A DNA stretch of 62,235 nucleotides, the filler included, from Dimargaris cristalligena (lineage: Eukaryota), in assembly GCA_003614675.1 (NCBI GenBank). It is 20 parts of 20 records of this genome, joined end to end, with 100 filler letters (N's around TTAATTAATTAA, not from the genome) between each part and the next. Parts side by side here need not be neighbours in the genome. Positions count along the whole stretch, not along the records: positions 12,598 to 15,634 come from ML004047.1; 19 more parts are not named here. One strand, written 5' to 3'. Made by a program: the position numbers and the translations under genes. Shown here piece by piece: positions 4,570 to 46,705 of this stretch. The notes under the pieces were generated by a model. The model was not told the DNA's origin, searched no databases, and saw only the letters and a list, made by a program, of their open reading frames with translations. Position 1 is the stretch's first letter. The number at the start of each line of letters is the position of its first letter.

Positions 4570-5308
4570 GCGGTGGAGATGCCAACCATTCGCCTTCTCA
4601 CCTCCGTCGCGGTTGCGCTTGACCTCTCCCTCTACCACATGCACGTCAAGACAGCCTTCCTCAACAGCCGTCCTCACAAGACAATCTACATGTGCGCCCC
4701 CCCCACTGTCCCTGTGGCACTTGCGTCATCCACTCCCTGCGGACTCTGTACGCCTTGAAGCAGAGCACTTGTGAGTGGAATGCATGCCTGCATGTGTTCA
4801 TGACACCAATGGTGTTCCATCGCTTGTCTGCCAATCCCCCCTCCTACATCCCCGATGACGCAAATGGGCGGGTCCTCATTGCAATCTACGCCGACAACAA
4901 TGGGCCCCTTCCAAGACTGTTGCCCAGGGGGTGAATCACTTGATCATGAAAAAGTTCAGCATGTTGCTGATTGGAGGAACTTGACTTCATTCTTGGCAGA
5001 AAGGTGGACAAGTACTCCGGCGGATGGTTCCTGAACCAGACAGGCTACATCGACATGATCCTAGATCGTTAAAACACGGCAGACTGCCAGCCTGTCATAA
5101 CACTGCAGCGACCTTTGCCAACGATCCCATCAAGCAAGTACCAAAGCTGGCAGATCCCAACGTCCTTCCCCACTGCACCGCCGTCGGTTTCCTCATGTAC
5201 ACGATGATTGTCACCCATCCAGATATTGCCTACACCGTGTCCCTGGTCTCCTGGAACATGGCTAGCCCTACCAAGGCAAGGGGGCAACATGTCATGCACA
5301 ACTTCTTT
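4570..5308 (+). mobile_element. Ty1/Copia reverse transcriptase relic (frameshifted)
   Basis: Motifs MHVKTAFLN (DVKTAFLNG), LYALKQS (LYGLKQS), IAIYADN (YVDD) and AVGFLMYTMIVTHPDIAYTVS (VGSLMY...TRPDIAYAV) lie in shifting frames. Confidence 0.9.
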
Positions 5309-6303: not shown

Positions 6304-6411
6304 CTTACTGCCACCTCTTGGAACAGCAAGTCTATCATCACCTTTCCCTTTTTATCACCTATCTTTTCAAATAAAGATAAGTTTTCAAGGATTTGAGTTC
6401 AGTTCTCTATA
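6304..6411 (+). repeat. LTR family B, 3' tail at contig start
   Basis: ...AATAAAG...GATTTGAGTTCAGTTCTYTA(C/T)A. The same tail occurs at 9452-9521 and 31363-31493. Assignment to family B is inferred from the terminal inverted match with TGTGGTGAACT. Confidence 0.7.
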
Positions 6412-7624
6412 AGGGTGCTTGTTTGGGGTTGGGCCAGGCTTGGGGTGCTTAGTGGAGTTGCCAGGGCAGATACGGGCAGTGCATTCCCTGGGTGGGTGGC
6501 TAGAGCTATTTCAATCCAGCATAATGTTTCTTGTGTAGAGTTCTCTTACTGTTGGAGGGTAGCTTATTGCTCCTCCATGCCCTGCATTCAATTGGTGATC
6601 CAAAGGATGCTATCTACTAGTTATTCTTGGGTCTGGGAGTGGGTAGCACTTTGTTCCCAGAGCATCACTAGAATTTCTTGGTATGGGTTGGGGTCGCATG
6701 CCAGGGCTGGTGGGGTTGGGTTCAGGGGCTGCAATATGTTGGTACTCAGTGAATCACTGATCTTGATGTATAGTAGGGTTGCTTCATTCCACTTGTCATA
6801 GTAGGGGAGTCTAGGTGTGTTATCCAGGTTGACTGAAACAGTTGTTGGAATACTGGTTTTGGGCTGTCCTTGGGTGTGGCATGTGGACTGGGTTGCCTGG
6901 GCAGTCTCCTCCTTCCTTTGACTAGCTCGGGTATCTGAGCTAGTGGGGGCAGAGGGTTTGATGATGGTAGCCATTGCCTGGGTACTATGGTGGGTGCAAC
7001 TTGAGATGGGCTCATCATTATCAGCCACAGCCTGGGGGAGTCAATAGTTGGGCCCCAGTATGTGAGTACCAAGGGGTGAACTGTGGTTTCATTATTTATT
7101 ATGTATCCAAATGAATTTGGTTGCTCTAGTGTACAGTGAGTTGGTAGGGGTCACTGTCTGGTCTTGGGGTATACCTGTCAGGGAGGGTTGGTGAGGGGGT
7201 ATCAGGTCTCCTGGATTTGAGTGTAGTCAGAAGTCTCTGATAAGTGATAATTCTGCTTAGATTGGGGTTTCTCATGAGGCTAATCTTGGGAGGTTTTGTA
7301 AGTAGCCTTGTAAAATGCATACTCTATGGTTTGGCACTGGTCAATCAATGTATCACTGTACTTGGGTAGTTCTAAGTTCATCCTCAGAGGGGGTAGGTGT
7401 TGTTGGGGGGTGTGCTTCCACAGTCCTTTATGGTTGGGCATCTTTGGGGTGTATCTCCATGTTCTTTTGTGGGGTAACAGCTTGATTGTCTGCAGTCCTT
7501 TGTGGGTGGGGGCCCATTCCTTCCACAGTGCCTTATAGTCCTTCATAAGGTACAGGTAGGTCTATGGCTGATAGGGGTACAGAGGCTTTCCTTTGAGAGA
7601 CTGTTCAATATGGTCCTCTACCAG
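6412..7624 (-). mobile_element. Degenerate internal (5' UTR/gag-side) region downstream of LTR-A
   Basis: Follows LTR-A and a PBS-like TGG (7623-7612). Its first ~320 bp are homologous to 55410-55732 and 58508-58830. Almost no CpG; no intact ORF. Confidence 0.5.
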
Positions 7625-8205
7625 TGTCACCCAGGTTAACTACTCTTAGTCTGTCAAGAGTCCTGGGGGTAGGCTTCTAACAGTAGGCAGGCTTTAGACT
7701 TGGCTAAGTGGGCTACTAGTGTTAGGGAGGGAATGGTACTAACCAAATAAAGCAAACATAGTCAACTATACCAGGGATATGCAGCAGTGCACACTTACTT
7801 AGTTAATATAAGGGGATGAGCATATATAGGTGTTTATTGGGGGTAAACTAAGGAATATGAATAAGCTGAAGATTCTAACTGGTCCAAATGGGCCCAGTTA
7901 TATATACACAGGGGACTACTCCAACAGGAGGTCCCAAGGGGAGGAACTACATAACTAAGCTATTAATGAGTAAACCGGCCGGGTGGTCCTTGTATCAGGA
8001 AGACTTCTATGGGAACTGGAAGGGGCCTCAGATTAACAGTAGAGTGATTAGTGTGAACACCGGAGAGCCTGATTGGTGGGGTTATATGATAATGGTTATC
8101 CCCATAGTACTGGGGGTGACCATGGGGGGGTTCAATATGGTGCTATAAGGCCTGATATGGCAGATAATCATCCTGTCAGATTAGGTTGGATTAGGAGGGC
8201 CGACA
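7625..8205 (-). repeat. LTR family A (~580 bp), probable 5' LTR
   Basis: TGTCGGCCC...GGGTGACA termini and an internal TATATATAA box. Homologous to eight other copies in this window. Confidence 0.85.
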
Positions 8206-8829
8206 AGGGGAAGAGGGGATGGCAAAGTAAATAGTGGCAACGATAAAGAGACAGGGTAAATCTTCAACTTTCTCTCTCCTTTTCTCTCACTAAAGCAGCG
8301 AGAAACAGGCTTAACCATGTTTATCCATTTGTAGTGGAACATTCCATATTACAGTTATCCTGCTGGCCAAAGTAGACTGATTTGCAGAAAACGGGCAAGA
8401 GGGGTGAGGCTTCTAGACAAGAGCGAAAAATTGTCTACTTTGTAGCCCAAGGATCGTCACCAAAGAGTCGTCATGTAAATCTCTGTATTATCAGCTTGAA
8501 CTGTGGCGGCCATGTGGCCATTGTGCAATTGGCAGAGGTAGAAAGACGGGACGGCATTCCCAAAACATATTTTACTTAAATCTCTCTACATGACTGTAAC
8601 AGAGAACAGCAGCCTGGATAGTAGGGAAGCTAGTGAGACAGTTTTTCTAAAACTGCCCATCTAATGAATAACGGCCACCTATACTCCCTTTACAGAAAAA
8701 TATAAATACCACTTGGCAGCCCACTCTTCTGGTAGCAGTATCCACTCATCCGCACTTCATCCAAAGCAGTTCATTACAACTCATCTCATTCCATGTTTTC
8801 CACTTACCCAAATTCCCACCATATCCACC

Positions 8830-9051
8830 ATGCAGTTTACCTTGTTTTTCAAGGCCCTCCCCATTGCCATTGTCGCTCTTTTCGCTGTGGCCCAGGCCAA
8901 CCCCGTTAATGGCCATTCTGACAGCTCCGCCGCTCATGCCCAGGGGCTTTTCCGCCGTCAACTGGCGGGTGCAACTGCTTCGGTTGGAAAACGATTTGTA
9001 TCTTCAAAAGAGCCCATTTTTTGGCCGACCTTTTATCATAAACATCAATAG
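8830..9051 (+). CDS. Small secreted peptide precursor (73 aa) with signal peptide and RR/KR sites
   Basis: MQFTLFFKALPIAIVALFAVAQA|NPVN...GLFRR-QLAGATASVG-KR-FVSSKEPIFWPTFYHKHQ. TATAAA at ~8701, CCACCATG start context, AATAAA at ~9153. Confidence 0.7.
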   Translation: MQFTLFFKALPIAIVALFAVAQANPVNGHSDSSAAHAQGLFRRQLAGATASVGKRFVSSKEPIFWPTFYHKHQ

Positions 9052-9451
9052 ACTGGTTTCTCCTTCCAGCTCCTGCCACTCCACTTCGGCCTGATTTTAT
9101 TAAGTCATAGTAGCCTTACCCTACCTAGCATGCTCAATCAGACATCCATATCAATAAAATCTCTATGCGTAATCCCCATTAAAGACGAGCAGTGTCTCAA
9201 TGTGCCCATTATTTCTATTAATAGTATGAATGAGCACGGTTCCCACTCAGCTGTTTGCTCAGAGTGTTCGGGCAGGAACCACTGCTCCATCATAAGTCCC
9301 CCATTAATCTGGGGCCATAACTGTACTATAAAATATAATTCAGTTTAAGACNNNNNNNNNNNNNNNNNNNNNNNNNNNNNNNNNNNNNNNNNNNNTTAAT
9401 TAATTAANNNNNNNNNNNNNNNNNNNNNNNNNNNNNNNNNNNNNNNNNNNN

Positions 9452-12500: not shown

Positions 12501-13349
12501 NNNNNNNNNNNNNNNNNNNNNNNNNNNNNNNNNNNNNNNNNTTAATTAATTAANNNNNNNNNNNNNNNNNNNNNNNNNNNNNNNNNNNNNNNNNNNNAAG
12601 TGGATGAAGAGGAGTCTGAAAGGTGGAGACCTGGTGCTGGATGCTGGAGGACTCGGCGGGGGGCTTCATGGGTGGCATCGTTGTCTTCTTCTTTGGTGGG
12701 GCTTCGGTTGGGGTGGTGGCTGGTTAGGCTCTACGTACATCTCCTACAAAAGTAGTAAAGGGGTTCTGTATGGGGGCATGATCGGACATCGCTTCGGCTG
12801 AGGCTCTGCTGGGGTTGAGGGCGGGGGTGCTATTGGTGGGGCACTGCGCTGGTCTGTGGGGAGTGTGTCTGAGTACCTCGGTGGCCTCTTACTCATAGTG
12901 AGTGGAGGGTTTACCCTGGGGTGCGCCTGGTCGGTCGGGAGGAAGGAGGTGCGGGTTCCCACATCAAGGACTTCACCACACACGGTGTAGATCCCTCATT
13001 TATGGGGGGCGTGCCGTTTGGTGAGGGTGTGCTGGACGTGCTGAATGAGCCCTTCATTGAGGGGGGTGCTAGTATATGATCTTCTTGTACGCTTTTGGGG
13101 GTGTTAAGTGGAGGTGGTGCGGAGGGGTGGTGTTAGTGGAGGCTGAAGGAGTGGGGTCTTGCAGCGTTCGCCCCGTAAATCGATGGTAGTCGATTGGAGG
13201 GGTGATAAGTTGCAACTTGCAGACCCCACGGTCAGCCGCAGCGTGCCACCCCGTAGTAACACCGGAACGACTTGGGTGATTCAGGGAGACTTGGTTGGGG
13301 TGTTGCTGGATAGTGATGTTTATGATAACGGTTAGCTTGATGACTCATT

Positions 13350-15634
13350 GATGTTGCACGGTTGGTGACGCATGAGTCTATCGCTTCGCTCAACATCACC
13401 AATTGAATGGAGCCAGCTGTTGCTGTCTCGGGTGGATGACTTCTTCCTAACCCTAGTTGCATTGCTGATAGACACAGCTGGCTCACCTCTCATTATTTAA
13501 TAATCATTGCTGCAATGAGCCACCTCGTGGGTGTCTCAGGTAGCTCAACATTCATGTTGCACGGCTGACATTCACTTATGCTGGGTCGCTTTGCTTACCG
13601 ATGACCCCATGATGAGCCGACTGTGGCCGTCTCAGGTAGCCATTACAACGAGTTCCCCTCCATTGAGACAGCTGTGGCTGTCTCGGTAAACATTCAGGCT
13701 GCACCGTGAATTAGCTATGTCATGCGAGGGTCGTTCCGTTTCATTCCGTCAGCCACGCTCTAGTCTCCAGTCTCCCCTAAAGGGGCCCCCAAGGACTGGC
13801 TCCTGGCGCTAACACCTGACTCCATTGTACTGCACTTGTTTATCTTGATGGGTTCCTGACGCCCTTCGGTTGTCCCGACAATATCACCTGCGGTGAGCTA
13901 CCTATAAATTAACGCTGCATCTAATTCCTAGCACACTCCGTTTGCCACTCCCTACTATCCATATTGGCTGCACCGTACTCATGATGCACAATGCTGCTTA
14001 GAATGATCAATGAAGGGAGCCGCCTATGGCCGTCTCAGACTAATAATCGTTGAACTTGCTGAGACGGCCACAGGCGGCTCCCCTTGCTAATCCTTGAATG
14101 GTCATCACCTTCATGATCCCTGCTGCCCTGCCTAACTCTGGACATAGAATAGCCATGAAGCCAACTGTGGCTGTCTCAATATAGCCTCCTAGATAGCAGA
14201 GGACCTACTTTAAATTAGTGTTGCACGGTTTAATAACCACCTTGGTTGACAGCTGTGGCTGTCTTATAATGAAGGGTATGAATTAGCTGTTATTGGTCCT
14301 GGTTGCACCGGTAGACGTTATACCGATGTCCTTGATGGTCTATCCGGTGGTCTTAACGTCCCTGTGGATGGTATTGACGGCCCCGTTGTTGGTTTAGCAG
14401 GTTCCCTGATGTTGATCGAGTGGGTGAACCTTGGTTTACTTGGTGATCGGGCTGATCTATCTGTTGATCCGTAGGTCCTTAATGGCAATCAAGTTGGTGG
14501 TCTTGCGTCCTGTTGATCGAGACGTTGATGATATCGCCCTTACTGTTGGTCGTAGTATATTTCAGATCCTTGCTGCATCGTGAGACAGCCACAGCTGGCT
14601 CCTTGGTGATCATTTAAATCAGTGTTGCAGGTTGAACGTACACGAGTCGCTTCGCTTATCACTTGATCCTGCATGGAGCCGTCTGTGGCCGTCTCGGGCT
14701 GATTCATAATCCTGGTTGAACTGCTATCCTCACTTGGTGAGACAGCCACAGCTGGCTCCTCGTTGCAGAACACTTACAGATCATCGCTGCACGGTTAACA
14801 CGAACTCTAGGTCGCTTCACTTATTGAATTCGAGGATCCTTATTAGTCACTGCTACATTGACCCTGCTGATAACGACGTTGATGCTGCTGTTGACGAAGG
14901 TGGCTAACCGGTTGAACTCTATCGCTTCACCTATCAACACTTCCATTGAGCCATATTTAAGTCATTGTTGAACTGAAGGATCAAGCGAACCTATAGATCA
15001 TGGTTGCTCGGTTGGTAATTCGTTATGTACATGTCGCTCCGCTTATCAACTCCGATCTAAGGAGCCAGCTGTGGCTGTCTCGGATTAAACCTATAGATCA
15101 AGGTTGCACCGTTGAATAAACAAGGAGTCGCTTCGCTTAAGGTGATGAATAGATTGAGCCGCCTGTGGCCGTCTCACGTTAACATTGCTTGAGACAGCCA
15201 CAGCTGGCTCCCTTGGCTAATCACTGATGACCTTGAGGGTGATGATGCGTTACAGGTTGAACACGACCATCGCTTCAGGTGGAGTAAGTCTTGCACATGT
15301 TGACGATGAACGATGCCGCTGCGCTCACTGCTAATGATCCTAACCGAGGGGTTCCGCGTTTAGAGTAAGGGGGTTCACTAGAGTACTCCAGGCCGGACGG
15401 CCAAGTCATTTAAATTGATGCTGCACGATTGATGATACACGGGTCACTTTGTTAACTGATGATGGTGGTGACTAACTAGCTTCGCATTGATAGCAACACT
15501 CCTCATTCGCTCAACCTCGAGGCCTCGGGGCATCGCCCATTCGTACGTTAGGTTACTGGTTCCTGACGCCCTTCGGTTGTCTCCTACAGATTAGGGTTGC
15601 ACTGACTGATGCACGGGTCGCTTCGCTTATCGAC
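13350..15634. repeat. Complex array of a 20-bp palindromic motif (~15 copies, both orientations) interleaved with a second motif
   Basis: GAGCCAGC-TGTG-GCTGTCTC or its reverse complement at 13410, 13465, 13517, 13614, 13665, 14017, 14061, 14158, 14246, 14582, 14676, 14739, 15062, 15156 and 15191. GTTGCACGGTT..GTCGCTTCGCTTA occurs about 9-10 times. Confidence 0.9.
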
Positions 15635-16191: not shown

Positions 16192-17772
16192 TTATTGGCG
16201 TTTGATATATTCGATCATAGCAGGAGTCTGGGGCAAGATGAACATTTTGGTGTAATCGGCGGCGGGCATACCCTTGGCGGTCAATTTGAAATCAAAGTGA
16301 CGGACAAGGGTGGCCAGAATGGTCTTGACCTGTAGGTAGGCAAAAGGTTCACCGATGCAACGATGACGACCGGCACCGAAAGGCAAGTAAGGACTCCGGG
16401 CACTGGTGGTCCGGAGGACACCGAACCCGTAGTCGACATCATCGGCTTCAGTACCAATGGAAGCGGCACTTTCCTTTTTGGCGTCCTCGAACCACCGGGC
16501 GGGGTTGAACCGCAGGGGATCGCGGTAGATTTTAGGGTCGGTTTGGGTAATGGCGGGGGAAGCCATGATGAAGTCACCCACGGGAATGACGTAACCCGAA
16601 CCGGGGAATTCAACGGGCTTGACCACCTTGCGGATAATTTCAATGATGGGGGGACGCAGACGCAGGACTTCAGTGACGAGGTTGTCGAGAACAGGCATTT
16701 GCTTGATGGCGTCGAAAGTCAAGGGAGCGTCCAAACTGCCGAGGACCTGGATCTGTTCCTCGCGCAGTTGGTCAATCAGTTCGGGCTGTTCGGCCATATA
16801 GAGCAGGGCCCAGGCGGTGGTGGCCGAGCTGGTGTGCTGGCCCGCCATGAGCAGCGCGATCATGATACTGGCAATCTCGTAGTGGGACAGGACCTGGCCG
16901 TTCTTGTAAGTGCAGGTCATCAGGTGGTTGATGATGTCCACGCCCTGGGACGGGGTCGAACTTTCGCTGCGGTTCTTCAGGATATCCAGGTAGATGGACT
17001 TGAGGGCGATATGGGCGGCATCGCGCTTGCGGTAGCTTTCCAGGGGCAGATTTTCGAACAGGAAGTTGAGCGGGGTGAAGCCATTATCCAGGTCGTGATA
17101 CAGATCAGCGATCTTCTCGTCCAGTTGGGAGCGGATTTCTTCCCCAAAGAGCGTGCGGGAGGCGGTTAAAGTAACCAGTTCGGCGACGCTCTGGACAACA
17201 TCCACGGAACCGGATTTTTCGGCCCAGCGTTGGATATAGGTCTCGGTTTCGTCCACGATCATCGGTACGTAGGCGCGCAAGTTATCGTTGGACAGGGAGT
17301 TCTTCATGAACCGCTTCTGTTCCATCAGGATACTATTGTCGACATCGTAGACCACTCCCTTGCCGAACACGGGCACGGTAAGGTGCTTGTAGGCTTCTTC
17401 GGCGGAGACGTGGGCCAGTTTGGCGTTGAAGAAAAAGTTGTTCCCCTCGGGTCCCAGACAAGCGGTCATGCGGCGGCCAAAAACGAGGAAGGTGTAGCAG
17501 TCACCATAGCGGGCCTGGTTGTTGCGGAAAAAGGCCAGCGGATCCATGCCAAAGGTGATCATACTGCCGAAGAAGGGGAACAGGTAAGGCACCACGGGGG
17601 GAGCATGGGGATCCTTAAGCAAGCGCTGCTCGATTTGGGCCCACAGAAGGGCGGTGAAGATCAGGCCCCCGATGGCGGTCAGAATAAGGACAGGAGTGGA
17701 TGTGGTGGCCACGTAGGCTTGGTAGGCCGTATGGACCTCCCGAAGGTACGGGAGCAGAAAATCTAGAATCAT
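16192..17772 (-). CDS. ERG11: Sterol 14-alpha-demethylase CYP51 (526 aa, intronless)
   Basis: N-terminal TM anchor, AEEAYKHLTVPVFGKGVVYD, LMEQKRF, I-helix LLMAGQHTS, EVLR (ExxR) and heme motif FGAGRHRCIG. Confidence 0.98.
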   Translation of the reverse strand: MILDFLLPYLREVHTAYQAYVATTSTPVLILTAIGGLIFTALLWAQIEQRLLKDPHAPPVVPYLFPFFGSMITFGMDPLAFFRNNQARYGDCYTFLVFGRRMTACLGPEGNNFFFNAKLAHVSAEEAYKHLTVPVFGKGVVYDVDNSILMEQKRFMKNSLSNDNLRAYVPMIVDETETYIQRWAEKSGSVDVVQSVAELVTLTASRTLFGEEIRSQLDEKIADLYHDLDNGFTPLNFLFENLPLESYRKRDAAHIALKSIYLDILKNRSESSTPSQGVDIINHLMTCTYKNGQVLSHYEIASIMIALLMAGQHTSSATTAWALLYMAEQPELIDQLREEQIQVLGSLDAPLTFDAIKQMPVLDNLVTEVLRLRPPIIEIIRKVVKPVEFPGSGYVIPVGDFIMASPAITQTDPKIYRDPLRFNPARWFEDAKKESAASIGTEADDVDYGFGVLRTTSARSPYLPFGAGRHRCIGEPFAYLQVKTILATLVRHFDFKLTAKGMPAADYTKMFILPQTPAMIEYIKRQ

Positions 17773-18870: not shown

Positions 18871-19324
18871 AAAAGATAGATGAATAATAGAGAAAGGGAG
18901 AGAAGGTCCCAGAATATTGGATGACTAAGCAGAGGGAAAGAGAGGGGATTTCCCAGATAATAATATTAGTTATTACAAAGGATAGGTAATACTCAGGTAA
19001 CTAATAAATTTAATGTAATATAATAAAAGGGAAAAAGGGAAAGCTATTTTTAACTGTACTTTAAATTGGGGCACAATTGAGCCAGGGGTAGTGTGAATGC
19101 AAGGGTACAGTCTGGTCAGGGGCAGGAGTGCATTATAGTCAAGGGTATAAAAATATACTAATGGAAAAAATACTTTACTAATGAAAATGGAGGAAAAATG
19201 ACTATGCTTGTCAGGGGTAGGGGTAGGGGTGGGGGCTCATTCACTCATCAGGGGTGTACTTCTGATAAGTGCAAAAAAAAATATAAAAAATCAAAGTAGG
19301 TAAAAATATGGTAAGTTCACCACA
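18871..19324 (-). repeat. LTR family B, 5' part, inserted into LTR-A
   Basis: The minus strand begins TGTGGTGAACTTACC and abuts internal LTR-A sequence. Confidence 0.8.
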
Positions 19325-19786
19325 ACCCTTCTCCTTCCAGCCCCAATCCTTTATACAAAACACTTAACTGACTGATCCAAATGACTATTCTGGTTCCCAT
19401 GAGAGTCTTCCAGATACAAAGCCATCTGGTCAGATTCTTTATCTACCTATACCTTAGTCTTAGTAGAATTTCCCTTGGGACCTCCCTCTAGAGCTGTCCC
19501 TGTGTATATATAACCAGGCCCCACTGGGACTGGTTCAAGGGCTCAGCTTATTTTTATATCCCCCAGTTTACCTCAATAAACTCTATATGCTCATTCCCCC
19601 TTGTGCTAACTAGTAAGTGTGCCTGCTACATGTCCCTGGCATTAACCTGCATCTGTCCTTTATTAGTTAGTACTACACCCCCATCCTAACACTAGTAGCC
19701 TGCTTGGCCAAGTCTAAGCCCTGCCTACTATTAGAAGCCTATCCTCAGGACTCTTGATGGACTAAGAGTGGTAAACCTGGGTAATA
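19325..19786 (+). repeat. LTR family A, 5'-truncated
   Basis: Ends GGACTAAGAGTGGTAAACCTGGGTAATA (decayed GGGTGACA). Confidence 0.85.
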
Positions 19787-22700
19787 CTGATATACTCTAT
19801 TGCTAGTTGTCAATTGATATTTAGTCTGAAAAAACATACCAATACTGTCCTGAATTGGTTAATCAATATGGAAATTAATAGAGAAGTGCACCCATCAGTC
19901 AATTAGTTCATTATGGGGATATTTGAAAATATTGAATTCAGGCAATTTCAATGGAGCAAGTAAGTCAAACAAGCTGGAATTTTGGGGGGTTCCTTTAGTA
20001 TCAAGTAAAGGATTATGTGCCCTGCTTCAAAAACCAGCTGCCAGTTACACCTCTAGTTGCCATTGCCATTTGGGTTTTTTTTTATAAATACTAGAATCCC
20101 TACGCCTAGGGAGAATACACTCAAAAAAAGACTTTAAAAGGTGTTTTTATGGGTATCACATAGTCAGTGAATTGCCTGTGTGATAATTGTATGAAATTGT
20201 TAGGATTTATATAATCTAGCAGATAATGAAGATTGATGTAGATCCAGTAAGGCAAATGGCAGTGGATGCTACTAGATGATACAATAAGAAGATGATGAAT
20301 AGATATAGTTGGGGTAACAAGTAATCATTTGAATTATATGACTAAGATGATCATGGCCATGACCAAGTTGAGGCAATACCCTTGGTGATTGAGTGACCAT
20401 GCCCTATTGACGCACCTAGGTCAAAATTGACCTTGGAACTTAAATATGGTTTGATTTTAATAACTTTGGTTGTTAAGCATGACTATCACACCAATCAAAT
20501 GGGTTGCCCTACTACATAGACACCATACACCAACCACAGTCTGCCTTAGAATATGGGTGAAATTCAGCACAGCTGTATAAGTTTTACAAGATATATGTAT
20601 GGGATAATAGGTAGGAGATTTAATTTCAACCAGTAATATTTGCCCCACCCAGTGGATTTTTTGTTATACAGCTTGGATGAACTTCCCTCATATGCTGTCC
20701 CATTCAGCAGACAGCCATGAGTATTTTATAGTGTTGATTTCGTATCCTGGTTACAGGACTGGGCTATTTTTGCCTATGGCTCCCTGTCAGTATAGGCCAC
20801 ATCCTTTGGCAAGGGAGTGGAGAGCTGAGTAAGCAGGTCCAGAAGGCCACCCCATTCCAAACTAGGGCCACTAACTTTGCCCAGGGGTACAAGTGCATTA
20901 CTTTGGCCCCCTTGGTTAATGAACTGTCAAAAGCTGGGTAACTTATACAACCATGGCCAGTAAAAGGGAGTAAAAAATAAAATGTGATGGGGGGCCATAT
21001 ATTGAGCCGCCATTTTGTATATTCAGGCTTCTTTCTTTTTAAATATATTATACTATAATTAATTAATTTGTGTCTCCTCTCTATTATACCATATACCCAT
21101 TTAGCCCCCAAGAAGTGTGCTACTCTCTACAACATATTTGATGAGTGTCTAGAGGTCCTAATGATTATGCACATTCCCAGTGTCTTGTGAGCCACGGTTT
21201 ACCAGGTGATAAAAATATGGAATATTGCTGGCTCAAAGGCACCTGAATAACACGGGGGCTGTAGCAAGATCCTCAATGATTATGACAAGCACAGATTAGT
21301 GATATAAATGCCAGCCCACCCATTCATTACCAACCAGAGCCCTGTGGCCATCATATTCCCCGGCTAGTGTATATTGGGATAGACAATTTGAAGGGCATTG
21401 AAAGAAGCCAATATGCTCCTATGAGAAGCACAACTAAGGGAAATACCTAGTTGGAATGGTGTAGTTCATCGTCTATAGCTGAAGCTCTTTCAGAAAATGC
21501 AATATCACCCATAGGTTACTAACTGCGCCAGTATAGACTACATCTTTATTGGCCAGCTGGAGTCGATTATCATGTGTTTTCATCAAATGATTGAGTCTCC
21601 CGTGGAATAGACCATGGGCCTGAGGATTGTACTTGTATCGGCTTAAGCAGCAATTAAGTAGATAGCAATGATACATTAGCGATTACAATGATTCTAACAC
21701 AAACCACATTTTTAGGATCCAATAGGCAAGGTGGTCAGATTTTACAGGGAAAATTATGTGTAGTTTCCATCTGAATCAAGTTCCAGTGCACTAGCAAATT
21801 CGTTTTAAAAAACCCATTATGTTAATAGAGGGGAAAGAAAAAAAATTCCGTAAAAATATTACTTTCCCCGAAGTAGAAAGGAAAAATTTTCTAGTGAAAA
21901 NNNNNNNNNNNNNNNNNNNNNNNNNNNNNNNNNNNNNNNNNNNNTTAATTAATTAANNNNNNNNNNNNNNNNNNNNNNNNNNNNNNNNNNNNNNNNNNNN
22001 GTGCATAATTTTGCATATATAGGAAACTTTTTCCCCTCTTTTTTTCTGTGTGTCAATTTGTTTAGGGTTAATTTTCTTCTACTTTTTTTCTTTACAATAA
22101 AACTACATTTACTATTACTTTGGATTACTTGGATTTATATACCTTTGAAAGTTGTGGTTGCCAAGGAAATGGTCCTTTTGAGCTTCCAAACTGGTATTTT
22201 TCATATTGGATTACTTTGGTTTAAAAACTTTATATGGTTGGTTTTATTATTTTTCATTTGAGTGACAAACCAGTTCGCCTGGAGAAGCCACCCTGCACTT
22301 TTGATATATTTTTGTTGTTCATTTTAGTGGCCTGACACCACCACACTATGACACCATGGCTACTTTTCCTTCGCTCTTCGATGGCCTTTTAAAATTAATT
22401 AGTTAATAGATTGGATTTTGTAGGAGAAGTTTTTATTTAATAATAAGGATAGTTTTTATGGATTTTATAATGATATAAATAGGTTTTTTCTGCTGGATTT
22501 TCTCCCCAAATTAGGGAGCAAAATAGGTGGGTTTTTATACCCGATTGCAAGACTATGATAGAATGATCACTAGGGGTGCCGAACGGTCATTGACGATGAT
22601 TTCTCCCATCTCGACCATTCTCCTTCAACACTTTATGACCTCATACTCTAGAAAACATCGCCTCCTCTCACGGTTTCAGCGATAATGGCTTTTTTCTAGA

Positions 22701-26900: not shown

Positions 26901-29287
26901 AAACTTGAAATCCGGGTCCGGATTGGTTGGCACGGTTATAAAAAGCCGCTTAGGAGAATCTGATTGTGGTCGCCATAAGGTGTGTTACAGGAGAAGGGGA
27001 CTTTTGTAACTAAGGCGGCTGCGTCGATGTCTATGGATAGGACATTTAAAGGGAGTTGATTGCTGTACACTGAGAAATAAATTTCATGTATCATAGTGTC
27101 ATCCAATCATCCTTGAGACCGTCCTTCACGCTTGTCATATGATATGATCGCAGAAAGAGGCTAACTCACAGGGTGGAAAGTCTCACACTGTAGTCTGCCT
27201 TTTGAAGGCATCCAAACGGAGCAAGGAAGTGGCTTGAAATGTTCTAAAATACAACAGGCCCGCTGTGGGGATCGGTTTTCGATGACAGCAGGGGGAAGGC
27301 TTCATGTATTCAACAAGATGAGACTGAGTTCAAGAACAAAGGACCAAACTTCTGTTAATTTTGAATCTTTTCGGGCAGAGAACACAACTTCGCCAGCATC
27401 TTCCCCAGCACAAAAATGTCACAGCGCTAAATGTCACTTTGCTCTGACGTACTCTCTTCAATAATGTATGTCAATCGCCATTCCATGTCACGCTGTGCTT
27501 ACATAATTTTTTCAATAATCAAATTCATTTGCATGTTAACCCGCTCCATATCACGCTGTGCTCACGAAAAAGATTATGGAATCAGAGATTGAAACGAAGA
27601 GATCATTCAAACAAGCATTCAAAGATTTTAGCATTAACAAAATACAAACATGCATCACATTGTTCGCAAAGTCACCTCCTCCTAGGTATCTTGCAGGCCA
27701 TCAATTACGTCGTATTTGCCTTCCAGGTCACAGAGCAAGACAGAAACAAAGAGCCAGCTGCCGTCAAGTTGGGACGTCTCCTCCCTCTTGCCCAACAAAT
27801 TATTATTCTCTGCACACAGCCCAACAACCGTGACATCAGTGAATCCCTTGAAAACAATGCCCTCTTATCCCTCGAAATCCAGAATCCCTCCCCCCTACTA
27901 CTTGTGGGGACCTGTCCCTGACACCCCTTAAGGCAAACCACCTGTGTCTGTCAGCCCACACTCACCAAGCCAATCCAACCACACCTGCTACGGTGTTTTC
28001 GCCTCATCATCTCATCTCCATCCCCTCCATTACTACCATCCTTTCTCCAGCTGCATTTCTGCAGAATCCACGGATGGACCCCACTGTAGTGAGCAAGCGC
28101 GGTAAAACACAGCTTGATATCTATGTCCAAAAGGGAGTAGACTNNNNNNNNNNNNNNNNNNNNNNNNNNNNNNNNNNNNNNNNNNNNTTAATTAATTAAN
28201 NNNNNNNNNNNNNNNNNNNNNNNNNNNNNNNNNNNNNNNNNNNTGTAGAAAGAATGGGTTAAAAGGGAAGGGAAAAAAACTGGATATACCAGACAAAAAA
28301 GCTGCTTCATACCTTATATATAAATATAATAATCAAATAGTAATACTTTATACCTGTGGTAATCAAGGGGACACTCCACCTTGCCACAGCGCCCCAGCCC
28401 AATCTCGTTGATTCAGGCGATATTGGAAGCCCCGGCTGGCGGGGTTATCGCACCAGTTTACGTTACGCCTAGATCTCATCCATTGTGGATGGCTCGGCTG
28501 GTAGCAGTGCTGGTGTGACCGATTACCTGCACACGAAAGCCTCACGGTCAGAATCAGTGGTTTGTCCCAGTGACCTGGTGCCTCAGCTAACCCTTCAGTG
28601 GTTATTGGGTGAATACTTATTTGCACTCTGGCCCATACTTTATGGTAAGTCAAATATCAATTATGAAATATTTAGTATCCTTCTCATAGCCCCACTTAAA
28701 TCCACAAAAGAACTAGTTGACAAAGGTTTATATACACACGTATTGGTCACATAACTGCTTGCTAATTATTTAATCATTATATAATTATCTCTTCCCCTCA
28801 TCCTCCCGAACAGTATTTGATATTCGTAAATGAGGGTGCCGGGCATGGCTACCTTGGGTTATTTCTCTTGCAATAGAATCACTTAATCGCCTCATATCCA
28901 TTTCCTCTGGTCGTAAGCGCAGTACAGGAGTCTCACTCCACAAGAGTCTGAAGCTCACTGAATTAAGTCCCTGGTTGTGACTCTTCTTGAATTACTTCTT
29001 ATGCAGTCCATTTTACGAGCAGTTTACTAAACCCCGTCTGGACTGGGCATTAAGCGAACCCAAAATAAGTCCATTACTTCATTGTTCACGGGTATTCTGA
29101 GCGACTACCAACCCCTTTTGGAGTCATCCTATTTCTATACAGCAGGATCATAGGCAAGTCATCGCGACTTGATATAGGCAGATGGAGTAGCACATGCACC
29201 TCTTTATTAGGGCAAGTGCCTCTGTTCGAACCTCTTACTGTGCTGGATGGATATTTGCATACTGGGAGCAGTTGTGCAGTATATAAT

Positions 29288-29870
29288 TGTTAACTAGGTT
29301 AACCACTCTTAGTCCATCAAGAGTCCCAAGGATAGACTTCTAATGGTAGGTGGGGCTTAGACTTGGCTAAGGGGGCTACTAGCAACAGGTATGGGGTACA
29401 GTACTAACTAATAAAGGTTTAGGTAATTGGTTATGCAAGGGACATGCAGCAGGCACACTTACAGGTCAGTATAAGGGGGTGAGCATATATTGAGTTTATT
29501 AAAGTAAACTGGGGGGTAAGGATAAGCTAAGGAATCTAACCAGTCCCAATGGGGGCCAGTTATATATATGCAGGGGACAGCTCCAAAGGGAGGTCCCTAA
29601 AGGAAGATACTACTAAGACTAAAGGTATGATGAATAGCTAACCAAATGGCTGTAAGGACTTAGAAGACTCTATTAGGAACTGGAAGAGTTGTTAGATCAG
29701 TACAGGAGTGATTGGTGTGAACTACATAGTCCAGAAGGGGAATGGTAATATAATGTAGGATGATCCCATAGTACCAGGGGTGACCATGGGAAGGTTAATA
29801 TGGTGCTATAAGGCCTAATATGGGTGGATGATCATTATGTCCAGATTAAGTCAGATTAGGAGGGCTGACA
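29288..29870 (-). repeat. LTR family A, full length
   Basis: Reverse complement reads TGTCAGCCCTCC...CTAGTTAACA. Confidence 0.85.
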
Positions 29871-30367
29871 CTCCAAGCATACTTTCTATTGGTATAAATG
29901 CAGTTTCTTCATAATATTTAGAGATTAATGTCTAGTCACTCTATTTCATCAGCCTATATTGATATTGATATCCACACATGTCATTTACCCTTATGACAAC
30001 TCTTATCTGCTTATACCTTATAGAACCTGTCCCCCTAGTTTGTATTCATAGGTCTATTTGGCAAGAACTACCTTGAGCACAATTTGAAACTAAAAAGGCA
30101 CAATCCACCCAGGTATCTAACTACCCTTACCCAAGGATCATGCATGGCCAGCATCTGGTGTTTTCTTGTTGTCTGGTGACTGATAGTGTCATGAAGCCCA
30201 ATTATCTATATAAACCAATTCTACAGCTTGATCCTACTGTTAGAATGTAGAATCCCAATTACAGGAAGGTATCTTTCCAGGCCCACTGCTATCTTAGTTA
30301 CATATTGATATTTGCTGAGATTATTAATTAATATATGACTGTGGCTATCGTAAATGTATGAGCCCTG

Positions 30368-30950
30368 TGTCAGCCCTCCTAATCTGACTTAATCCAGACC
30401 TAACAATTGTCCATCCTTATTAGGCCTTATAGTGCCATATTAACCCTCCCATAGTCACCCCCAGTACTATGGGGTCATCATTTATTATATAACCCTACTC
30501 ATTCTAACCCCAATACTTTGCACCCCAAATACTCAACTTGCTGATCCAAGACTCTTCCAGTTCTCATAAGAGTCTTCCCAATGTAAAGCCATCTGGTCGG
30601 ATTCTTTAATTATCCACACCTAAGTCATAGTAGTATTTCCCTTGGGACCTCTCTCTGGAGCCATCTCCACATATATATAACCAGGCCCTCCTGGGACTGG
30701 TTCAAAGCTCAGCTTATTCATATCCCCCAGTTGACCTCAATAAACTCTATACACTCATTCCCCCTTATGCTAACTAGTAAGTGTGCCTGCTGCATGTCCC
30801 TGACATTTACCTGCATTTTTCCTTTATTGGTTAGTACTACACCCCCATCCTAATGCTAGTAGCCTGCTTGGCCAAGCCTAAGCGCCACCTACTGTTAGAG
30901 GCCTATCCTTGGGACTCTTGATGGACTAAGAGTGGTTAACCCGGGTGATA
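30368..30950 (+). repeat. LTR family A, full length
   Basis: TGTCAGCCCTCC...CCGGGTGATA. Confidence 0.85.
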
Positions 30951-31207
30951 GAGGTATATATAAAAATTATATAAAGATGCATTAGTTAGACAATTGAAGA
31001 TAAAGTATTGCTACTACATATTTTCTAATATGTGATTAAGGAAATAATTGAGTAGTGGAAAATCAACTAAGCCATTGTGGTAGTGTTCCATCAAAAAGTT
31101 GCAACAATGCTATATCCATTATCCTAGTCCTTTATGGGAAGAAAAATGGTACCACATAGATGCAGTAGAAATACATTTACATTGTAATGTGTCGTGAACT
31201 TACTACA

Positions 31208-31262
31208 TGTGGTGAACTTACCACATTTTTTACCTACTTTTATTTTTTATCTATTTTTCGCA
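31208..31262 (+). repeat. LTR family B, 5' end at contig edge
   Basis: TGTGGTGAACTTACCACA, preceded by a second partial terminus TGTCGTGAACTTACTACA (31190-31207). Confidence 0.75.
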
Positions 31263-31493: not shown

Positions 31494-33440
31494 CAAGGGT
31501 ATTTCCCCTAGCAAAAGAGGTACCATAGCAATTTGTGACCACCCTATTTCAACATCAATTACTGGAGTCCACTAATTCTTTAGCCCTATTAATTACTACT
31601 ACTGTTTCATTGCCATGCTGGCTACAACTTCAAAACTGCTGTACCTCCTCCTCTGTAAGAATGCTACCTTTAACTGGGGGAGTGCACAACAACAAGCCTT
31701 TGAAACCATCAAGGTTACCCTATTATCCCCCCCCCATTCCCGGCCACCCTGACTTTTCACTCCCCTTTACAATCCAAACTGATACCAGTACATGTGGACT
31801 GGGTACTATACTACAGCAGCACTGAAGTAATGGTGAAGTCCTCATCCAGTGTGCTAGCCAAACATTGTCCTCAGCTGAAGATAACTACACAGCTACCAAA
31901 ATGGAGTGTTTAGCAGTAGTATGGGCCATCAAATACTTTTACATTTTTATCCATGGGACCCATTTCACAGTTGAATCTGACCATACTGCCCTCTGCTGGC
32001 TTATGGATACCCATGAGCCTACTGGCAGGATTGCTTAATGGATAATGTACCTCAAGCCATACTCATTTGACATTGTCCACAGAAAAGGGACAGATAACTC
32101 AGCTGCCTATGCCTTATCCCAAATCCCATGGAATCCCCCAGCCCCCATGCCTGACCACATCCTCACTATTAAAGAAACCAACCTCCCCATTCCAAAGTTC
32201 CGGGACCATATACTGGTAGTCCCAGATGACCTCATTGACATCCTTATGAGTTTTATCAAAATGGGATACCTACCATCAAATGTGACCCCCAAAGACTCAT
32301 CCCAAATCACAACCACTGTACCTTTATTTAAAGTTGGAGAGGATGATACTCTGTATATTACTTGCCGAGGATCAAATAAACTCTGCTGAGTCATTCAAGC
32401 AAAAGACATCAACAATATTATCATATTACACCATGGCTCTACCCTGATGGGCCATCTAGGTGTTGCAAAAACTGCCAAACTAATCTAACAGCACTACTTC
32501 TGGTGTGGGATCACTCAATCAGTCTGAAACTTCATAACTCAATGCCCCTACTGCCAAAAGGGCAACTCCTGATGTGACCACCTCGTCCCAAAGACCTGGC
32601 TGGAGTCACATCCATTCTCCACTGTGGCACTCGATATTATAAGCCCATCTGAACAACCAACGGCCATGGGTAATTGGTATTTCATCACTACAATGGATCT
32701 CTTCTCCTCTTGGCCTGAGGTTCAGGTATTACCTGACAAATCTGTCCCTTCTGTCATTGACCTCTTCATTACCAATATCATCTGTCAATTCGGCTGTCCC
32801 ACCCAAATTTTAACTGATAATGGGCATGAATTTGATAACAATCTCATACATGGTATATGCGAATGCTTGAACATTAACTAAAATTTCTTGGTACCATACC
32901 ACCCACAAACTGATGGCCAACTCGAGAGGTACAATGGTACCCTGGTCCAGCAATTACACCCACTCACCAAACAACACCAACAAGACTGGGATGAATTCCT
33001 CCTGCAAGCCCTATTCACCTACTGCATGAACACACACACTGCAACCCTCAAGGAGCCCTCCTGAGTGCTCTACTCCTTCAACCCCCCAACTACCCGCCAA
33101 AGTCCTCTACCCTACCAATGACACTATAGGGCCATCTGTTACTAAAGATTTCGAAGAATTACATCAGGAAGTCATTGCTAATCAATCTAAAGCCCAGGAA
33201 CATCACTTAAAGCATAAGGTCACCTCTGTGCCCTTTACCGAAGCTGAGCTCCCACTTGGTACTATGGCCTTTTATGAAAACCTTGCTTGTACCAAGTCCC
33301 AACTCCCGTGGCTGGGTCCCTTTATAATTGGGGACCATTCCCCACATAATACTGCAACCCTCAGAGGGGGCGGACAACCCTGAGTCAGGATGACCCCTCA
33401 TCTCAACCAATGAGAATGCTCCATCTAACCCCCTCACTAT
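31494..33440 (+). mobile_element. Ty3/Gypsy pol relic: RT thumb, RNase H, integrase
   Basis: PDFSLPFTIQTDTS, AEDNYTATKMECLAVVWAIK, SDHTAL, HRKGTDN, HHCC zinc finger (H..GHLG...CPYC), DLFS, ILTDNGHEF and YHPQTDGQLERYN. The RNase H-then-integrase order is Gypsy-type. Many stops. Confidence 0.95.
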
Positions 33441-37662: not shown

Positions 37663-38604
37663 TTACACGGAAATGTCCTTTTTGCTGAGGCCCGTCGTCT
37701 TGGTCAAAAAGTCCAGATGTGGGCTAACGTGGGTGAAGAACGAGGTTTTGTCCCCGCTATCGCAGGAAATCTTGTCGCCGGGGTTGGTGCCGAAGCTGGT
37801 GATGCCCAATTGGACCCAGTTGCTCATGTACAGTCCCAGAAGTGGGCCGCCCGAGTCACCCTGGCAAGTTCCCTTGAAGTCGTTCTTGGCCGAACAAATG
37901 TAGGGACCGTTGGAATCCTTAAAGTCCAGTCCATCGATGAGGTCGCAGGCCTCGCGATCATTGGACAAGGCTAGATCCACCTCATACGGCGCGGGGTTGG
38001 CCGACTTTTGATTCTCCTGAGTCTTGCCCCAACCAATGACGCGCGAGGAGTCGTTGTCCTTGATTGTGCCCGTGTAGATCTTGATGGGTTGAATCTTGGC
38101 CGAGTAGACGAGAGGCGTTTCCAGTTTAATGAGGGCGATGTCGTTCACCGGCACGTCTTCCATATAGTAGTCAGGGTGGGCAACAACTTGGGAGATGTTG
38201 TAATTTGTCACGGTGCGAGGGTCCGCCGTGCCGATGGTGACATGGGTAAGGCCGGCTTTGTTAATGCTGCACAGTTTGAGGGAGTCGAACGAGTCAGGAC
38301 AGTCGACTACACAGTGCGCGGCGGTCATAATCCATTCGTTGCTCAAAACACTACCGGAACAAAGGGTGCTTTTGGCACCATTATACACCAACCGGGCCAG
38401 GAAGGGGTAATTGCTGGTGGCTGCCTGGCCACCGTAGACACGGGTAACGTCGGCGGCGGTCACCTGAGGTTGGTCACCAGAGAATACCCGGGGGGCCAGC
38501 TGGGCGGATGGGGTAGCCGGGGCCGCATACGTAGGGGTGTTGATGAGCAGCACTGAACTGGCCCAGAGAGCGGCCGAGGTGAGGGAAATGACGCGCAAGT
38601 ACAT
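37663..38604 (-). CDS. Secreted S1 (trypsin/chymotrypsin-fold) serine protease (313 aa)
   Basis: Signal peptide from MYLRVISL (ATG 38604), activation site R|VYGG, catalytic motifs TAAHC, DIAL and GDSGGP. Confidence 0.95.
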   Translation of the reverse strand: MYLRVISLTSAALWASSVLLINTPTYAAPATPSAQLAPRVFSGDQPQVTAADVTRVYGGQAATSNYPFLARLVYNGAKSTLCSGSVLSNEWIMTAAHCVVDCPDSFDSLKLCSINKAGLTHVTIGTADPRTVTNYNISQVVAHPDYYMEDVPVNDIALIKLETPLVYSAKIQPIKIYTGTIKDNDSSRVIGWGKTQENQKSANPAPYEVDLALSNDREACDLIDGLDFKDSNGPYICSAKNDFKGTCQGDSGGPLLGLYMSNWVQLGITSFGTNPGDKISCDSGDKTSFFTHVSPHLDFLTKTTGLSKKDISV

Positions 38605-40359
38605 GATTAAGCAAGGGGAGGGGCGAAGGGGAAGGAGGGTTACGTATATCGGAGGTTCCTGGGATTGGTTCAAAAAGGGGGATTACGCAATATAAAGCAA
38701 GGCCAAAGTGAAAAATGACTTTTCTGATTGTGTTTGATGCTGGAAAACCTCGTACTAAATACAATGCAACAGTGCAGGATGAAAACAATAAGTTGGTAAA
38801 CTGGGGCTGCGAAGGGTTGCCCATTTATACCATTTACAGATCCGTTCCGGTTACGAAACAGAGAGCCCTAGGCACAATACCCAGCCCATTAAGACGGGAT
38901 CGTACAGCCGTATGGCCCAGGGAATATTGGTAAGCACGGAATAAGGCAAAAGTAGTCTAGTCATTCCCTATATAGTGTAGTTGGCGGACAATAGGTTTCA
39001 TGGGAAAGGGGAGTGTGATATTATTGATGATCTCCATTCCGACCTTTTATTGTTAGTTAGCCAGGGGCTCCACTCAAGGGTGAAGGTCCCGCAGAAGAAA
39101 CGGATATTACAACTATTGGCTTACCAACATGGAAACGACTGGCCCATTGTTTAAACACCAAGTCCATCCTATTTGTTCTTGTTACTAGGCATTATACCTG
39201 GCAATTTCTTTTTGGATTATACAAAGTTCCGCTGAGTATACCCATACTAAAATCGCCACTGTCGTCGGAAAGCGATAGCCAGGGAGGGCTGGTCAGTTAG
39301 AATACTAATGGGGGCTAGAATCTTGTTCAAGTGGGTTTACTACTGCTCGTTCCTTACGAGTTCCCGTAATGCCTAAAACTTTGGCATGCATTGATTTTTG
39401 TCCCGGGTGCTGGCTACTGCAGGCAACATACTAGACAATCGGAAACGGTCATGTCTCTAATCCCACTAATTATCCGAATTTAGACCAACACCGTCATACA
39501 CATGCGACTCTTAACAAGAGAATGCCAAGTATATTCACTTCTTATACTCGGAGCGTGGCTGAGTTATTGTGCAATACCTTTGTTGGTTCCAGGCACGTCT
39601 ACTAATAGTGCAAATACCCAGGCTGGCAATGTCCTGTTTTAAAGGCAGCGGTAAGTTAGCTCACCGTGAGCATGTAGTGCCAATTTATCACTTTTCTTGC
39701 AATAAACGTAATTAGGTGCCAGTACCTAAAGTCGATGGGCAATAGTTCATATCCTAAGCTAGGAGCCCCAACGGCCCCATTTGGTCTAAAAATAAAGTTA
39801 CGCCAGATGGTATTGTGTAGGCATGAATTATAGATGCGTCCGTCAAAGAAGAAGTATAAAAGGTACATTATAACAAAATGATTATCATCATGTCAGAGAG
39901 ATAGTTTTGAAATTCCGATGCCGTAAGCCAAATCAGGTATACTTGTCAATTGGAAGATAGTCGAGAGGACAATAGCAATCGCAAGACAATAGTGCTTTGT
40001 TAATGAACTACCATAGGCTCATATAATAGTTTGCAAAACTTAGTTGGCCAACGTTCTAATCTAATGACCAGCGTATTTTACTGAACTGCCTCTTCTAAAT
40101 CGCGGAAATAGTAAATAGGGGTGACATCCAGCCTGGTTTATGTATGGTATAATGTGGGGTGGTGATTCATTCTAAACCAGGGACAGTTGCCTAATTCTAC
40201 CAGGTTTTTTTCGTTATAAAGCCTCGTTGAACTTCTTCTATACACAGTCAGTCGAAAACTAATTTACCTAAGAGCAACAACCGTTCCCCCGCAAACTTCT
40301 AGAAAAATAAAAATATGTAAGCCCGGCACTGTGGTGTCTAAAAAAAATCAAAAAAAGTT

Positions 40360-40434
40360 TGCCTCATACAGGGATCGAACCTGTGACCTTCGCGTTATTA
40401 GCACGTCGCTCTAAACCAACTGAGCTAATAAGGC
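40360..40434 (-). tRNA. tRNA-Ile (AAT)
   Basis: GCCTTAT-TA-GCTC...GAGC-G-ACGTG-CTAATAA-CGCGA-AGGTC-ACAGG-TTCGATC-CCTGT-ATGAGGC-A. A and B boxes present; oligo-T Pol III terminator just downstream. Confidence 0.95.
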
Positions 40435-46598: not shown

Positions 46599-46705
46599 AG
46601 TAAGGATAAGATAAATAATCTTAGTCCTGGTGACCACAGTAGTGTAAAGATTACTACAGGATACCAGCTTAATATCCAATTCATGACTGTAGGTGTTGGC
46701 CCACC

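Follow-up and report, generated by a model that had tools for sequence, protein, structure and literature searches.

A polar, multi-box and highly diverged non-coding repeat array in Dimargaris cristalligena with a near-palindromic 20-mer as its best-kept box

Ribosomal DNA (rDNA) intergenic spacers, which lie between the LSU 3' end and the SSU 5' end, contain sub-repeats with terminator, enhancer and spacer-promoter boxes, as in the Sal-box series of the mouse. The subterminal regions of CACTA and hAT transposons are two-ended and a few hundred bp long, loxP/FRT-type sites have inverted arms of about 11–13 bp around an asymmetric core of 6–8 bp, and the PstI palindromes of Neurospora and the double-hairpin elements of Allomyces are organellar mobile palindromes. 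Here we analysed an array of short repeated boxes, among them a near-palindromic 20-mer, in a 62,235-nucleotide window of the Dimargaris cristalligena assembly GCA_003614675.1. The window is made up of 20 contigs, each about 3 kb long and joined to the next by N-TTAATTAATTAA-N linkers (N runs), and therefore the true context of the array is limited to 3 kb, namely the focal contig at 12598..15634 (3037 bp), which holds the whole array. An initial annotation of this region had described palindromes in both orientations separated by unique spacers. We found that the array is polar, multi-box, highly diverged and non-coding and falls in no family searched, and that the 20-mer is the last and best-kept box of a one-directional unit of about 100–200 bp rather than a site standing alone between unique spacers.

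By general comparison, the nearest functional analogues would be one-directional rDNA-spacer sub-repeat arrays and satellites with a protein-binding box. Likened by description, rDNA spacer sub-repeats share with the array their non-coding nature, their single direction, short boxes of protein-binding type at irregular intervals in otherwise unalignable sequence and repeated TATA-like elements, but there is no rRNA gene end on the contig of the array, and inverted copies and long hairpins are atypical of such spacers. GC-rich palindromic repeats of organelle genomes are described for the Chlamydomonadales (Haematococcus, Stephanosphaera) in PMC7235400.

The 20-mer and the unit that it ends

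The 20-mer, GAGCCAGCTGTGGCTGTCTC, has 11 copies at ≤3 mismatches, all in 13410-15210; shuffled sequences gave an expectation of 0.01, and 0 of 100 shuffles reached 11. At ≤4 mismatches it occurs at 14 places, nine on the plus strand and five on the minus strand (mean 0.003 in 300 first-order Markov simulations), and nowhere else in the window (59,198 bases). Two further copies were read by eye: one at 13519 has an additional base and so is 21 nt long, and one at 14949 is cut off after GAGCCA. The 8-bp arms around a TGTG core that the initial annotation had described, with perfect arms at 13665, also held over the 14 copies. The core is essentially invariant (T9 and T11 without exception, G10 and G12 in 13/14). 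The arms are perfect only at 13665..13684 (+), which reads GAGACAGC TGTG GCTGTCTC; the consensus copy pairs at 7 of 8 arm positions and the GAGCCGNC...GCCGTCTC variant at 6 of 8. Mean column identity over the 14 copies is 90%, with eight positions, namely G3, C5, C8, T9, T11, C14, T17 and C18, invariant and six more kept in 13/14, and conservation is at background within 1–2 nt of either side. The 20-mer is thus sharply bounded and, as had been claimed, far better kept than its surroundings. The conserved word is asymmetric: position 4 is C in 12/14 copies, and its mirror position 17 is T in 14/14.

The gaps separating successive 20-mer copies range from 15 to 332 nt, and copies do lie in both orientations, so that the spacing and orientation given by the initial annotation stood. 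What did not stand was the view of the spacers as simply unique and unrelated, since the plus copies follow two other boxes, M1 and M2, in a co-linear order. The minus copies are also placed in an orderly way: four of the five sit 15–43 nt after a plus copy, with an M1-like GTTGAAC..TTGCT before them, in the loop, and CTTGG(C)TAATC after them. The only minus copy without a nearby plus partner is an exact 20-mer at 14582..14601 (-). The plus copy at 14158..14177 (+) has 2 mismatches.

The order of the unit is a TATA-like box (YTWYARATYA), M1 (GTTGCACGGTTG), 10–18 variable nt, M2 (GTCGCTTCGCTTATC), 14–15 variable nt and the 20-mer on the plus strand; four units then carry a short loop with the M1-like GTTGAAC..TTGCT and an inverted 20-mer. 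M1 at ≤2 mismatches has seven copies, 7/7 on the plus strand (Markov simulation mean 0.28), and M2 at ≤3 mismatches has eight, 8/8 on the plus strand (mean 0.05). The start-to-start distance from M2 to the 20-mer was 30, 29, 30, 29 and 29 nt in the five full, clean units. M1 and M2 are 22–30 nt apart, and successive M1 starts are spaced by 82–322 nt. The TATA-like box (CCTATAGATCA, TTTAAATTAGT, CTTACAGATCA and similar) lies 8–12 nt upstream of M1 in most units. A sequence-only model, R1, trained on six full units gave 21 matches, all in 13343-15634 and none on the other 19 contigs; the 15 outside the training set are whole or partial units, all within 13452-15634.

Conservation within the unit is mosaic. 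Mean pairwise identity over the five clean units, calculated with a shuffled control, was 87% in M1 (shuffled, 52%), 81% in M2 (shuffled, 52%) and 88% in the 20-mer (shuffled, 54%), while the interval between M1 and M2 (v1) reached 45% (shuffled, 41%), that between M2 and the 20-mer (v2) 54% (shuffled, 47%) and the 20 nt downstream of the 20-mer 52% (shuffled, 49%). In the adjacent units d and e, which are 100 bp apart, 24 of 27 nt are common over the stretch from M0, the box preceding M1, through M1, and v1 and v2 do not align. Head-to-tail copies are present, the co-linear order M0-M1-M2-20-mer occurring at least 13 times on one strand, but the units cannot be aligned over their full length, given the near-random interbox identity and the result of Tandem Repeats Finder (TRF), which reported nothing on the array beyond a 14-bp x 2 doublet. 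Boxes that are alike and interbox sequence that is near random indicate that the region is a tandem array that has diverged until nothing but the boxes is still shared. The spacers therefore do not align as the motifs do (45–54% against 81–88%), which the initial annotation had named as the mark of an ordinary diverged minisatellite, yet the region is still a diverged tandem repeat. A higher-order repeat was considered on the basis of two units 1707 bp apart that carry a further box, M5, and was rejected because their neighbouring units do not correspond.

The same mosaic bears on a neutral, decaying minisatellite-like repeat without function, in which short-tract gene conversion or sequence-biased repair would keep the boxes alike. 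Several units are decayed or incomplete, and neighbouring units have local variants in common (one M0 in d and e; TTTAAAT in c, j and h), which suggests local duplication or conversion. However, tracts of 12–24 nt that always end at the same edges, with random interbox sequence of 14–15 nt, are hard to obtain without selection, and we regard the neutral account as rather unlikely.

The array as a whole spans 13338..15634 (+) with at least 13 diverged head-to-tail units and is broken off within an M2 box where the contig ends. Its first full unit, a (13343..13435, +), has M1 at 13353, M2 at 13380 and the 20-mer at 13410 and scored 69.1 bits against R1, of which it is a training unit. A degenerate, near-full unit follows at 13452..13543 (+), starting within the minus 20-mer at 13465-13484 and ending with the 21-nt variant at 13519; it lies outside the training set and matched R1 over model positions 12-98 (18.4 bits, E ~1e-4). 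Full unit b (13545..13638, +) has M1 at 13556, M2 at 13585 and the 20-mer at 13614. At 13687..13740 (+) there is a 5' half unit with M0, M1 and an M2-like box, without a 20-mer, which carries M5 (GGTTCCTGACGCCCTTCGGTTGTC; 13851..13874, +). M5 is identical at 24/24 positions to 15558-15581; its two copies stand 1707 bp apart in two 20-mer-less units that otherwise do not align. Full unit k (13954..14042, +) has an M1-like box at 13967 and the 20-mer at 14017, and the short unit j (14207..14265, +) has M0, M1 at 14220 and the 20-mer at 14246, without M2.

The longest box-free stretch, 14302..14581 (+), is T/G-rich and about 280 nt long. Downstream of it, full unit c (14611..14702, +) has M1 at 14624, M2 at 14646 and the 20-mer at 14676, and the 5' half unit f (14773..14829, +) has M0, M1 at 14786 and M2 at 14811, with the 20-mer absent at the expected distance. 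The weak, shortened unit g (14908..14953, +; R1 6.4 bits, E 0.53) has an M2-like box at 14921 and a 20-mer at 14949 that ends after GAGCCA and is fused to the next M0. The two adjacent full units are d (14989..15087, +; M1 15003, M2 15033, an exact 20-mer at 15062) and e (15089..15181, +; M1 15103, M2 15127, 20-mer 15156). The 5' half unit h (15408..15459, +) has M0, M1 at 15420 and an M2-like box, followed by the second M5, and the last unit, i (15583..15634, +), has M0, M1 and an exact M2 at 15617 and is ended by the contig end. As a side observation, M5 has partial dyad symmetry, and its second copy ends in TGTCTC as the 20-mer does.

Hairpins and the RNA readings

The long hairpins that the initial annotation saw in facing 20-mers are real. 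The best, at 14015..14082, is formed by the 20-mer(+) at 14017 and the 20-mer(-) at 14061; its stem of 23 pairs contains one mismatch and closes a 20-nt loop, and its folding energy as DNA is -29.7 kcal/mol (z = -7.3). A second, at 15156..15210, joins the 20-mer(+) at 15156 and the 20-mer(-) at 15191 over a 15-nt gap (z = -3.9). The third, at 14675..14759, is made by the 20-mer(+) at 14676 and the 20-mer(-) at 14739 (z = -3.8; 3/20 positions unmatched), and a weak one at 13410..13484 combines the 20-mer(+) at 13410 with the decayed 20-mer(-) at 13465 (z = -3.2). The hairpin loops have GTTGAAC/TTGCT in common. Of four single-copy stretches, three folded no better than shuffles, the exception being the copy at 13665 (-8.8 kcal/mol, z = -4.1). 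In two of the four facing pairs the arms are of mixed subtype, with 3/20 positions unmatched in each, which indicates that the long stems are not maintained.

The initial annotation had also raised a structured non-coding RNA, and the fold tests spoke against it. The consensus fold of the unit reached only -4.3 kcal/mol (covariation term, -0.02), that is, no conserved RNA fold, and covariation across copies came down to one pair of the 20-mer stem. This pair is 6:15, one of eight, which is A:T in nine copies and G:C in five (n = 14). Pair 7:14 is broken in 5/5 G:C-type copies and 4:17 is unpaired in 12/14. Among 500 shuffles, 67 reached the observed percentage paired and 22 the observed double changes. 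Two sub-lineages explain the 6:15 switch equally well as a selected stem does.

Rfam gave no gathering-level match on the focal contig, and at E up to 5 it listed only generic miRNA-hairpin rows and two weak snoRNA rows. No tRNA was found on the contig. rRNA was matched nowhere in the window, the focal contig included, although this contig may be too short to reach an rRNA gene. Membership of RF03781 (mir-4524) was rejected. The hairpin at 14015-14082 resembles that precursor in its long near-perfect stem and in the GUCUCA...UGAGAC near the loop, but its scores, 43.6 bits on one strand and 42.2 on the other, fall short of the gathering cut-off of 68. As the match is below threshold and equal on both strands, and three other unrelated miRNA models match the same stem too, we take it as a generic long stem. 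A C/D-box snoRNA was likewise rejected, because the position of the TGATGA strings within the unit varies.

These results weigh on the possibility that the units are small transcription units, in which a TATA-like box would be followed by M1, M2 and a 20-mer hairpin and the products would be Dicer-type substrates or RNAs with variable guide-like segments. The position of the TATA-like box relative to M1 in most units, the polarity of the units, the fixed 14–15-nt length of v2, the four hairpins with z from -3.2 to -7.3 and the 43.6 bits of the best hairpin against an animal miRNA precursor model all accord with it. The sub-threshold and strand-indifferent Rfam match, the absence of a unit consensus fold and the mixed facing arms in two of the four pairs do not, and transcription units of this kind seem to us distinctly unlikely. 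The guide-target idea fared no better. A search of the window with the variable segments and loops showed that 13395-13409, the whole v2 of unit a, has an exact 15-nt reverse-complement match at 6585-6599 on another contig that ends at both box edges. This match is likely chance, because two exact 15-mers were seen in the contig, one of them non-spacer, against 0.33 expected, and the lone match is no more than background; it too counts against transcription units. A stronger version, in which the array would be a battery of small RNA genes with their own TATA-like promoters, an M1/M2/20-mer-hairpin scaffold and hypervariable guide-like segments of 10–18 and 14–15 nt, would fit the mosaic of units d and e, with their shared M0-M1 and unrelated variable segments. 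We consider such a battery a long shot, and equally so the idea that it would be a fungal counterpart of guide-RNA gene arrays.

Coding, mobile-element and genomic context

The longest stop-to-stop frame on the focal contig is 91 aa. Pfam found nothing significant in seven frames of this contig (a single listing at E 0.059, below its cut-off), the 77-aa and 91-aa frames had no word-sharing protein candidate, and a 74-aa frame at 14250-14471, which covers the 5' part of the box-free stretch, had 0 matches among 1.84 billion representative proteins. A coding repeat is therefore ruled out as far as frame, Pfam and protein searches reach. The left flank of the array, 12598..13330 (+), is G-rich (G 39%, C 18%) and box-free and has short overlapping frames only. 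It has numerous GGGG runs on the plus strand and, on the minus strand, proline-rich overlapping frames of 73–91 aa in different phases; Pfam found nothing in these, and a homologue of the 91-aa frame was not found. The flank may represent either non-coding DNA prone to form G-quadruplexes or the remains of a Pro-rich gene.

Sites for a transposase were the first mechanism proposed by the initial annotation. A transposon-derived array could consist of nested foldback elements, similar to miniature inverted-repeat transposable elements (MITEs), with 20-mer ends, or of internal or subterminal DNA with the 20-mer as a putative transposase site. CACTA (En/Spm) and hAT (Ac) subterminal repeats resemble it in having a short motif in direct and inverted copies at variable spacing. 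The two orientations of the 20-mer, the foldbacks of 55–85 bp given by facing pairs, the sharp box edges and the confinement of the family to one place in 62 kb, as for a local element, agree with such an origin, and so does a window that is otherwise repeat-rich with retrotransposon remnants. But neither a transposase or recombinase frame nor a terminal inverted repeat or other element terminus was found on the 3-kb focal contig, where the array runs off the contig end, so that termini could lie beyond it. A consistent target-site duplication was also missing: the direct repeats abutting the four facing pairs measure 0, 2, 1 and 0 nt. Unlike two-ended subterminal regions, M1 and M2 are strictly one-directional over an array of at least 2.3 kb. 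Elsewhere, neither a DDE transposase nor a tyrosine recombinase appeared in the 45 longer of the 76 window frames of at least 90 aa, which gave only RVT_2, RT_RNaseH_2 and rve fragments.

Base composition adds to this. The array region has about 50% GC, is gene-free and is strand-asymmetric, with T over A. Its CpG observed/expected ratio is 0.76, compared with 0.14–0.32 in the repeat contigs of the window and 0.85–0.90 in the gene contigs, which argues weakly against an old silenced transposon; unlike those repeat contigs, the array is not CpG-depleted. We accordingly do not find transposase-binding subterminal repeats supported as proposed, and a transposon-derived origin in general appears unlikely, if still worth serious consideration.

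The second mechanism proposed, recombinase-like sites, corresponds to an array of site-specific recombination sites that would invert or shuffle segments. The inverted arms, the asymmetric invariant TGTG core and the occurrence in both orientations are what such sites would have. However, the 8-nt arms are imperfect and the core has 4 nt, and a 20-bp site with a 4-bp core is smaller than known tyrosine-recombinase sites, loxP and FRT included. No recombinase was found on the focal contig or among 52 Pfam-screened frames from other contigs (7 + 45). M1 and M2 are never inverted (15/15 on the plus strand), although inversion should sometimes flip box-bearing segments. We give this mechanism hardly any credence.

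A further possibility is non-coding DNA of the mitochondrion into which short, mobile GC-rich palindromes have spread. The array is gene-free, with the GC content and T excess given above and hairpin repeats in both orientations that are better kept than their surroundings, which is the general style of the chlamydomonadalean organelle repeats described in PMC7235400. Compared by that description, the array differs in having an apparently fungal host and in that its palindrome is one box of a co-linear polar unit, whereas theirs is free-standing. The contig carries no organelle marker, neither an organelle gene nor a tRNA or rRNA fragment, and the other contigs examined have nuclear-type fungal genes. 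An organellar origin is therefore very unlikely in our estimate.

A bacterial origin of the repetitive extragenic palindrome (REP) type was rejected. REP/BIME elements and REPIN doublets are alike in being imperfect palindromes of about 20 nt in both orientations, clustered, with facing pairs that form hairpins, but the assembly that holds the array is eukaryotic and fungal-looking and no RAYT-type gene was found. An exact scan of the 20-mer over 185,579 bacterial and archaeal genomes, one for each species, returned four single, isolated matches with no further boxes, at the level of chance (estimate about 1). Plasmids and phages gave no blastn match at E ≤0.01. The literature searched for four motif pieces of 14–16 nt and their complements had none of them, and that on Dimargaritales repeats, fungal rDNA spacer sub-repeats, double hairpin elements and Zoopagomycota mitochondrial palindromes had nothing bearing on the 20-mer. 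A technical artefact, namely adapter remnants, was considered and dropped on general grounds.

Between the focal contig and the other 19, the only common matches are three of 18–20 nt, at chance level (E 0.53), and its origin from the same organism is therefore presumed. Elsewhere in the window, gene-type content was seen at 16192-17772 (-), 37663-38673 (-), 48121-49629 (+), 50425-51399 (+) and 40359-40435 (-); these loci include a cytochrome P450, a trypsin-like protease, an argininosuccinate lyase and a RING-finger protein, all seemingly intron-free, and a tRNA-Ile(AAT). The argininosuccinate lyase has 81–83% identity to counterparts of Tieghemiomyces, Dimargaris and Dispira (Dimargaritales, Kickxellomycotina), so that at least its contig comes from a Dimargaritales fungus. 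Degenerate fragments of long terminal repeat (LTR) retrotransposons lie at 4623-4931 (+), 31529-31822 (+) and 32573-32878 (+); they represent RVT_2 (copia-type), RT_RNaseH_2 and the rve integrase core, with scores near or below the Pfam cut-offs. The contigs at 53045-56042 and 56143-59141 are near-identical copies of one repeat (>2600 exact 15-mers in common), and six more (6304-9351, 18871-21900, 28244-31262, 40713-43726, 43827-46839 and 59242-62235) have many 15-mers common to other contigs. The repeat contigs are mostly CpG-depleted relative to the gene contigs, and their longer frames have no Pfam domain. This depletion suggests that repeats in the genome have decayed by methylation or by a process like repeat-induced point mutation (RIP).

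The boxes as candidate protein-binding sites

The most economical account of the 20-mer is that of a candidate site for a sequence-specific, possibly dimeric protein. For the array as a whole we favour, tentatively and with somewhat less than even confidence, a non-coding tandem repeat in which selection would preserve the boxes, a mechanism that we infer from sequence. Each box would be recognized in double-stranded DNA by a sequence-specific protein, and the 20-mer would be a partly symmetric site of this sort. The inverted 20-mers may have come from local inverted duplication of the 3' end of the unit, and the hairpin- or cruciform-prone spots would then be a by-product and not a selected feature.

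This selected-box reading draws on the box counts and their polarity (7/0 for M1, 8/0 for M2 and 9/5 for the 20-mer, plus and minus) and on the spacing of 29–30 nt from M2 to the 20-mer. The mosaic conservation, the sharp edges, the confinement of the family to the array and the ordered placement of the minus copies also point to it, as do the lack of a coding frame and of a unit RNA fold and, weakly, the CpG ratio of 0.76. The interpretation offered by the initial annotation is upheld in part. Its dimeric-protein sites agree with a sharp box of 20–22 nt with partial dyad symmetry, though the box is kept as an asymmetric word, and the particular mechanisms that it named did not find support.

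Several observations weigh against the selected-box reading. TRF sees no array, so that the term tandem repeat rests on box order alone. Units f, h and j and the unit at 13687 are without a 20-mer or M2, so that selection, if any, is not uniform. Gene conversion over short tracts, or mobile insertions the size of a box, could instead account for the conservation of the boxes. As there is no rRNA gene end on the contig, the rDNA-spacer analogy is without positional support. Finally, the 20-mer switches between A:T and G:C at positions 6 and 15 (in 9 and 5 of 14 copies) as a selected stem would, which speaks more for a hairpin than for a site in double-stranded DNA, although two sub-lineages account for the switch equally well.

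The array illustrates that what looks like palindromes with unique spacers can conceal a longer polar unit. If the boxes are neither selected nor transcribed, the array would be a repeat of its lineage, of local interest and mainly useful in explaining the assembly break. Transcribed units would amount to clustered small-RNA genes of a new class. Should the boxes be protein sites under selection, the array would hold a compact natural grammar of five sharply bounded boxes with fixed spacing and would provide a handle for finding a DNA-binding factor in the Dimargaritales, a barely studied group of mycoparasites.

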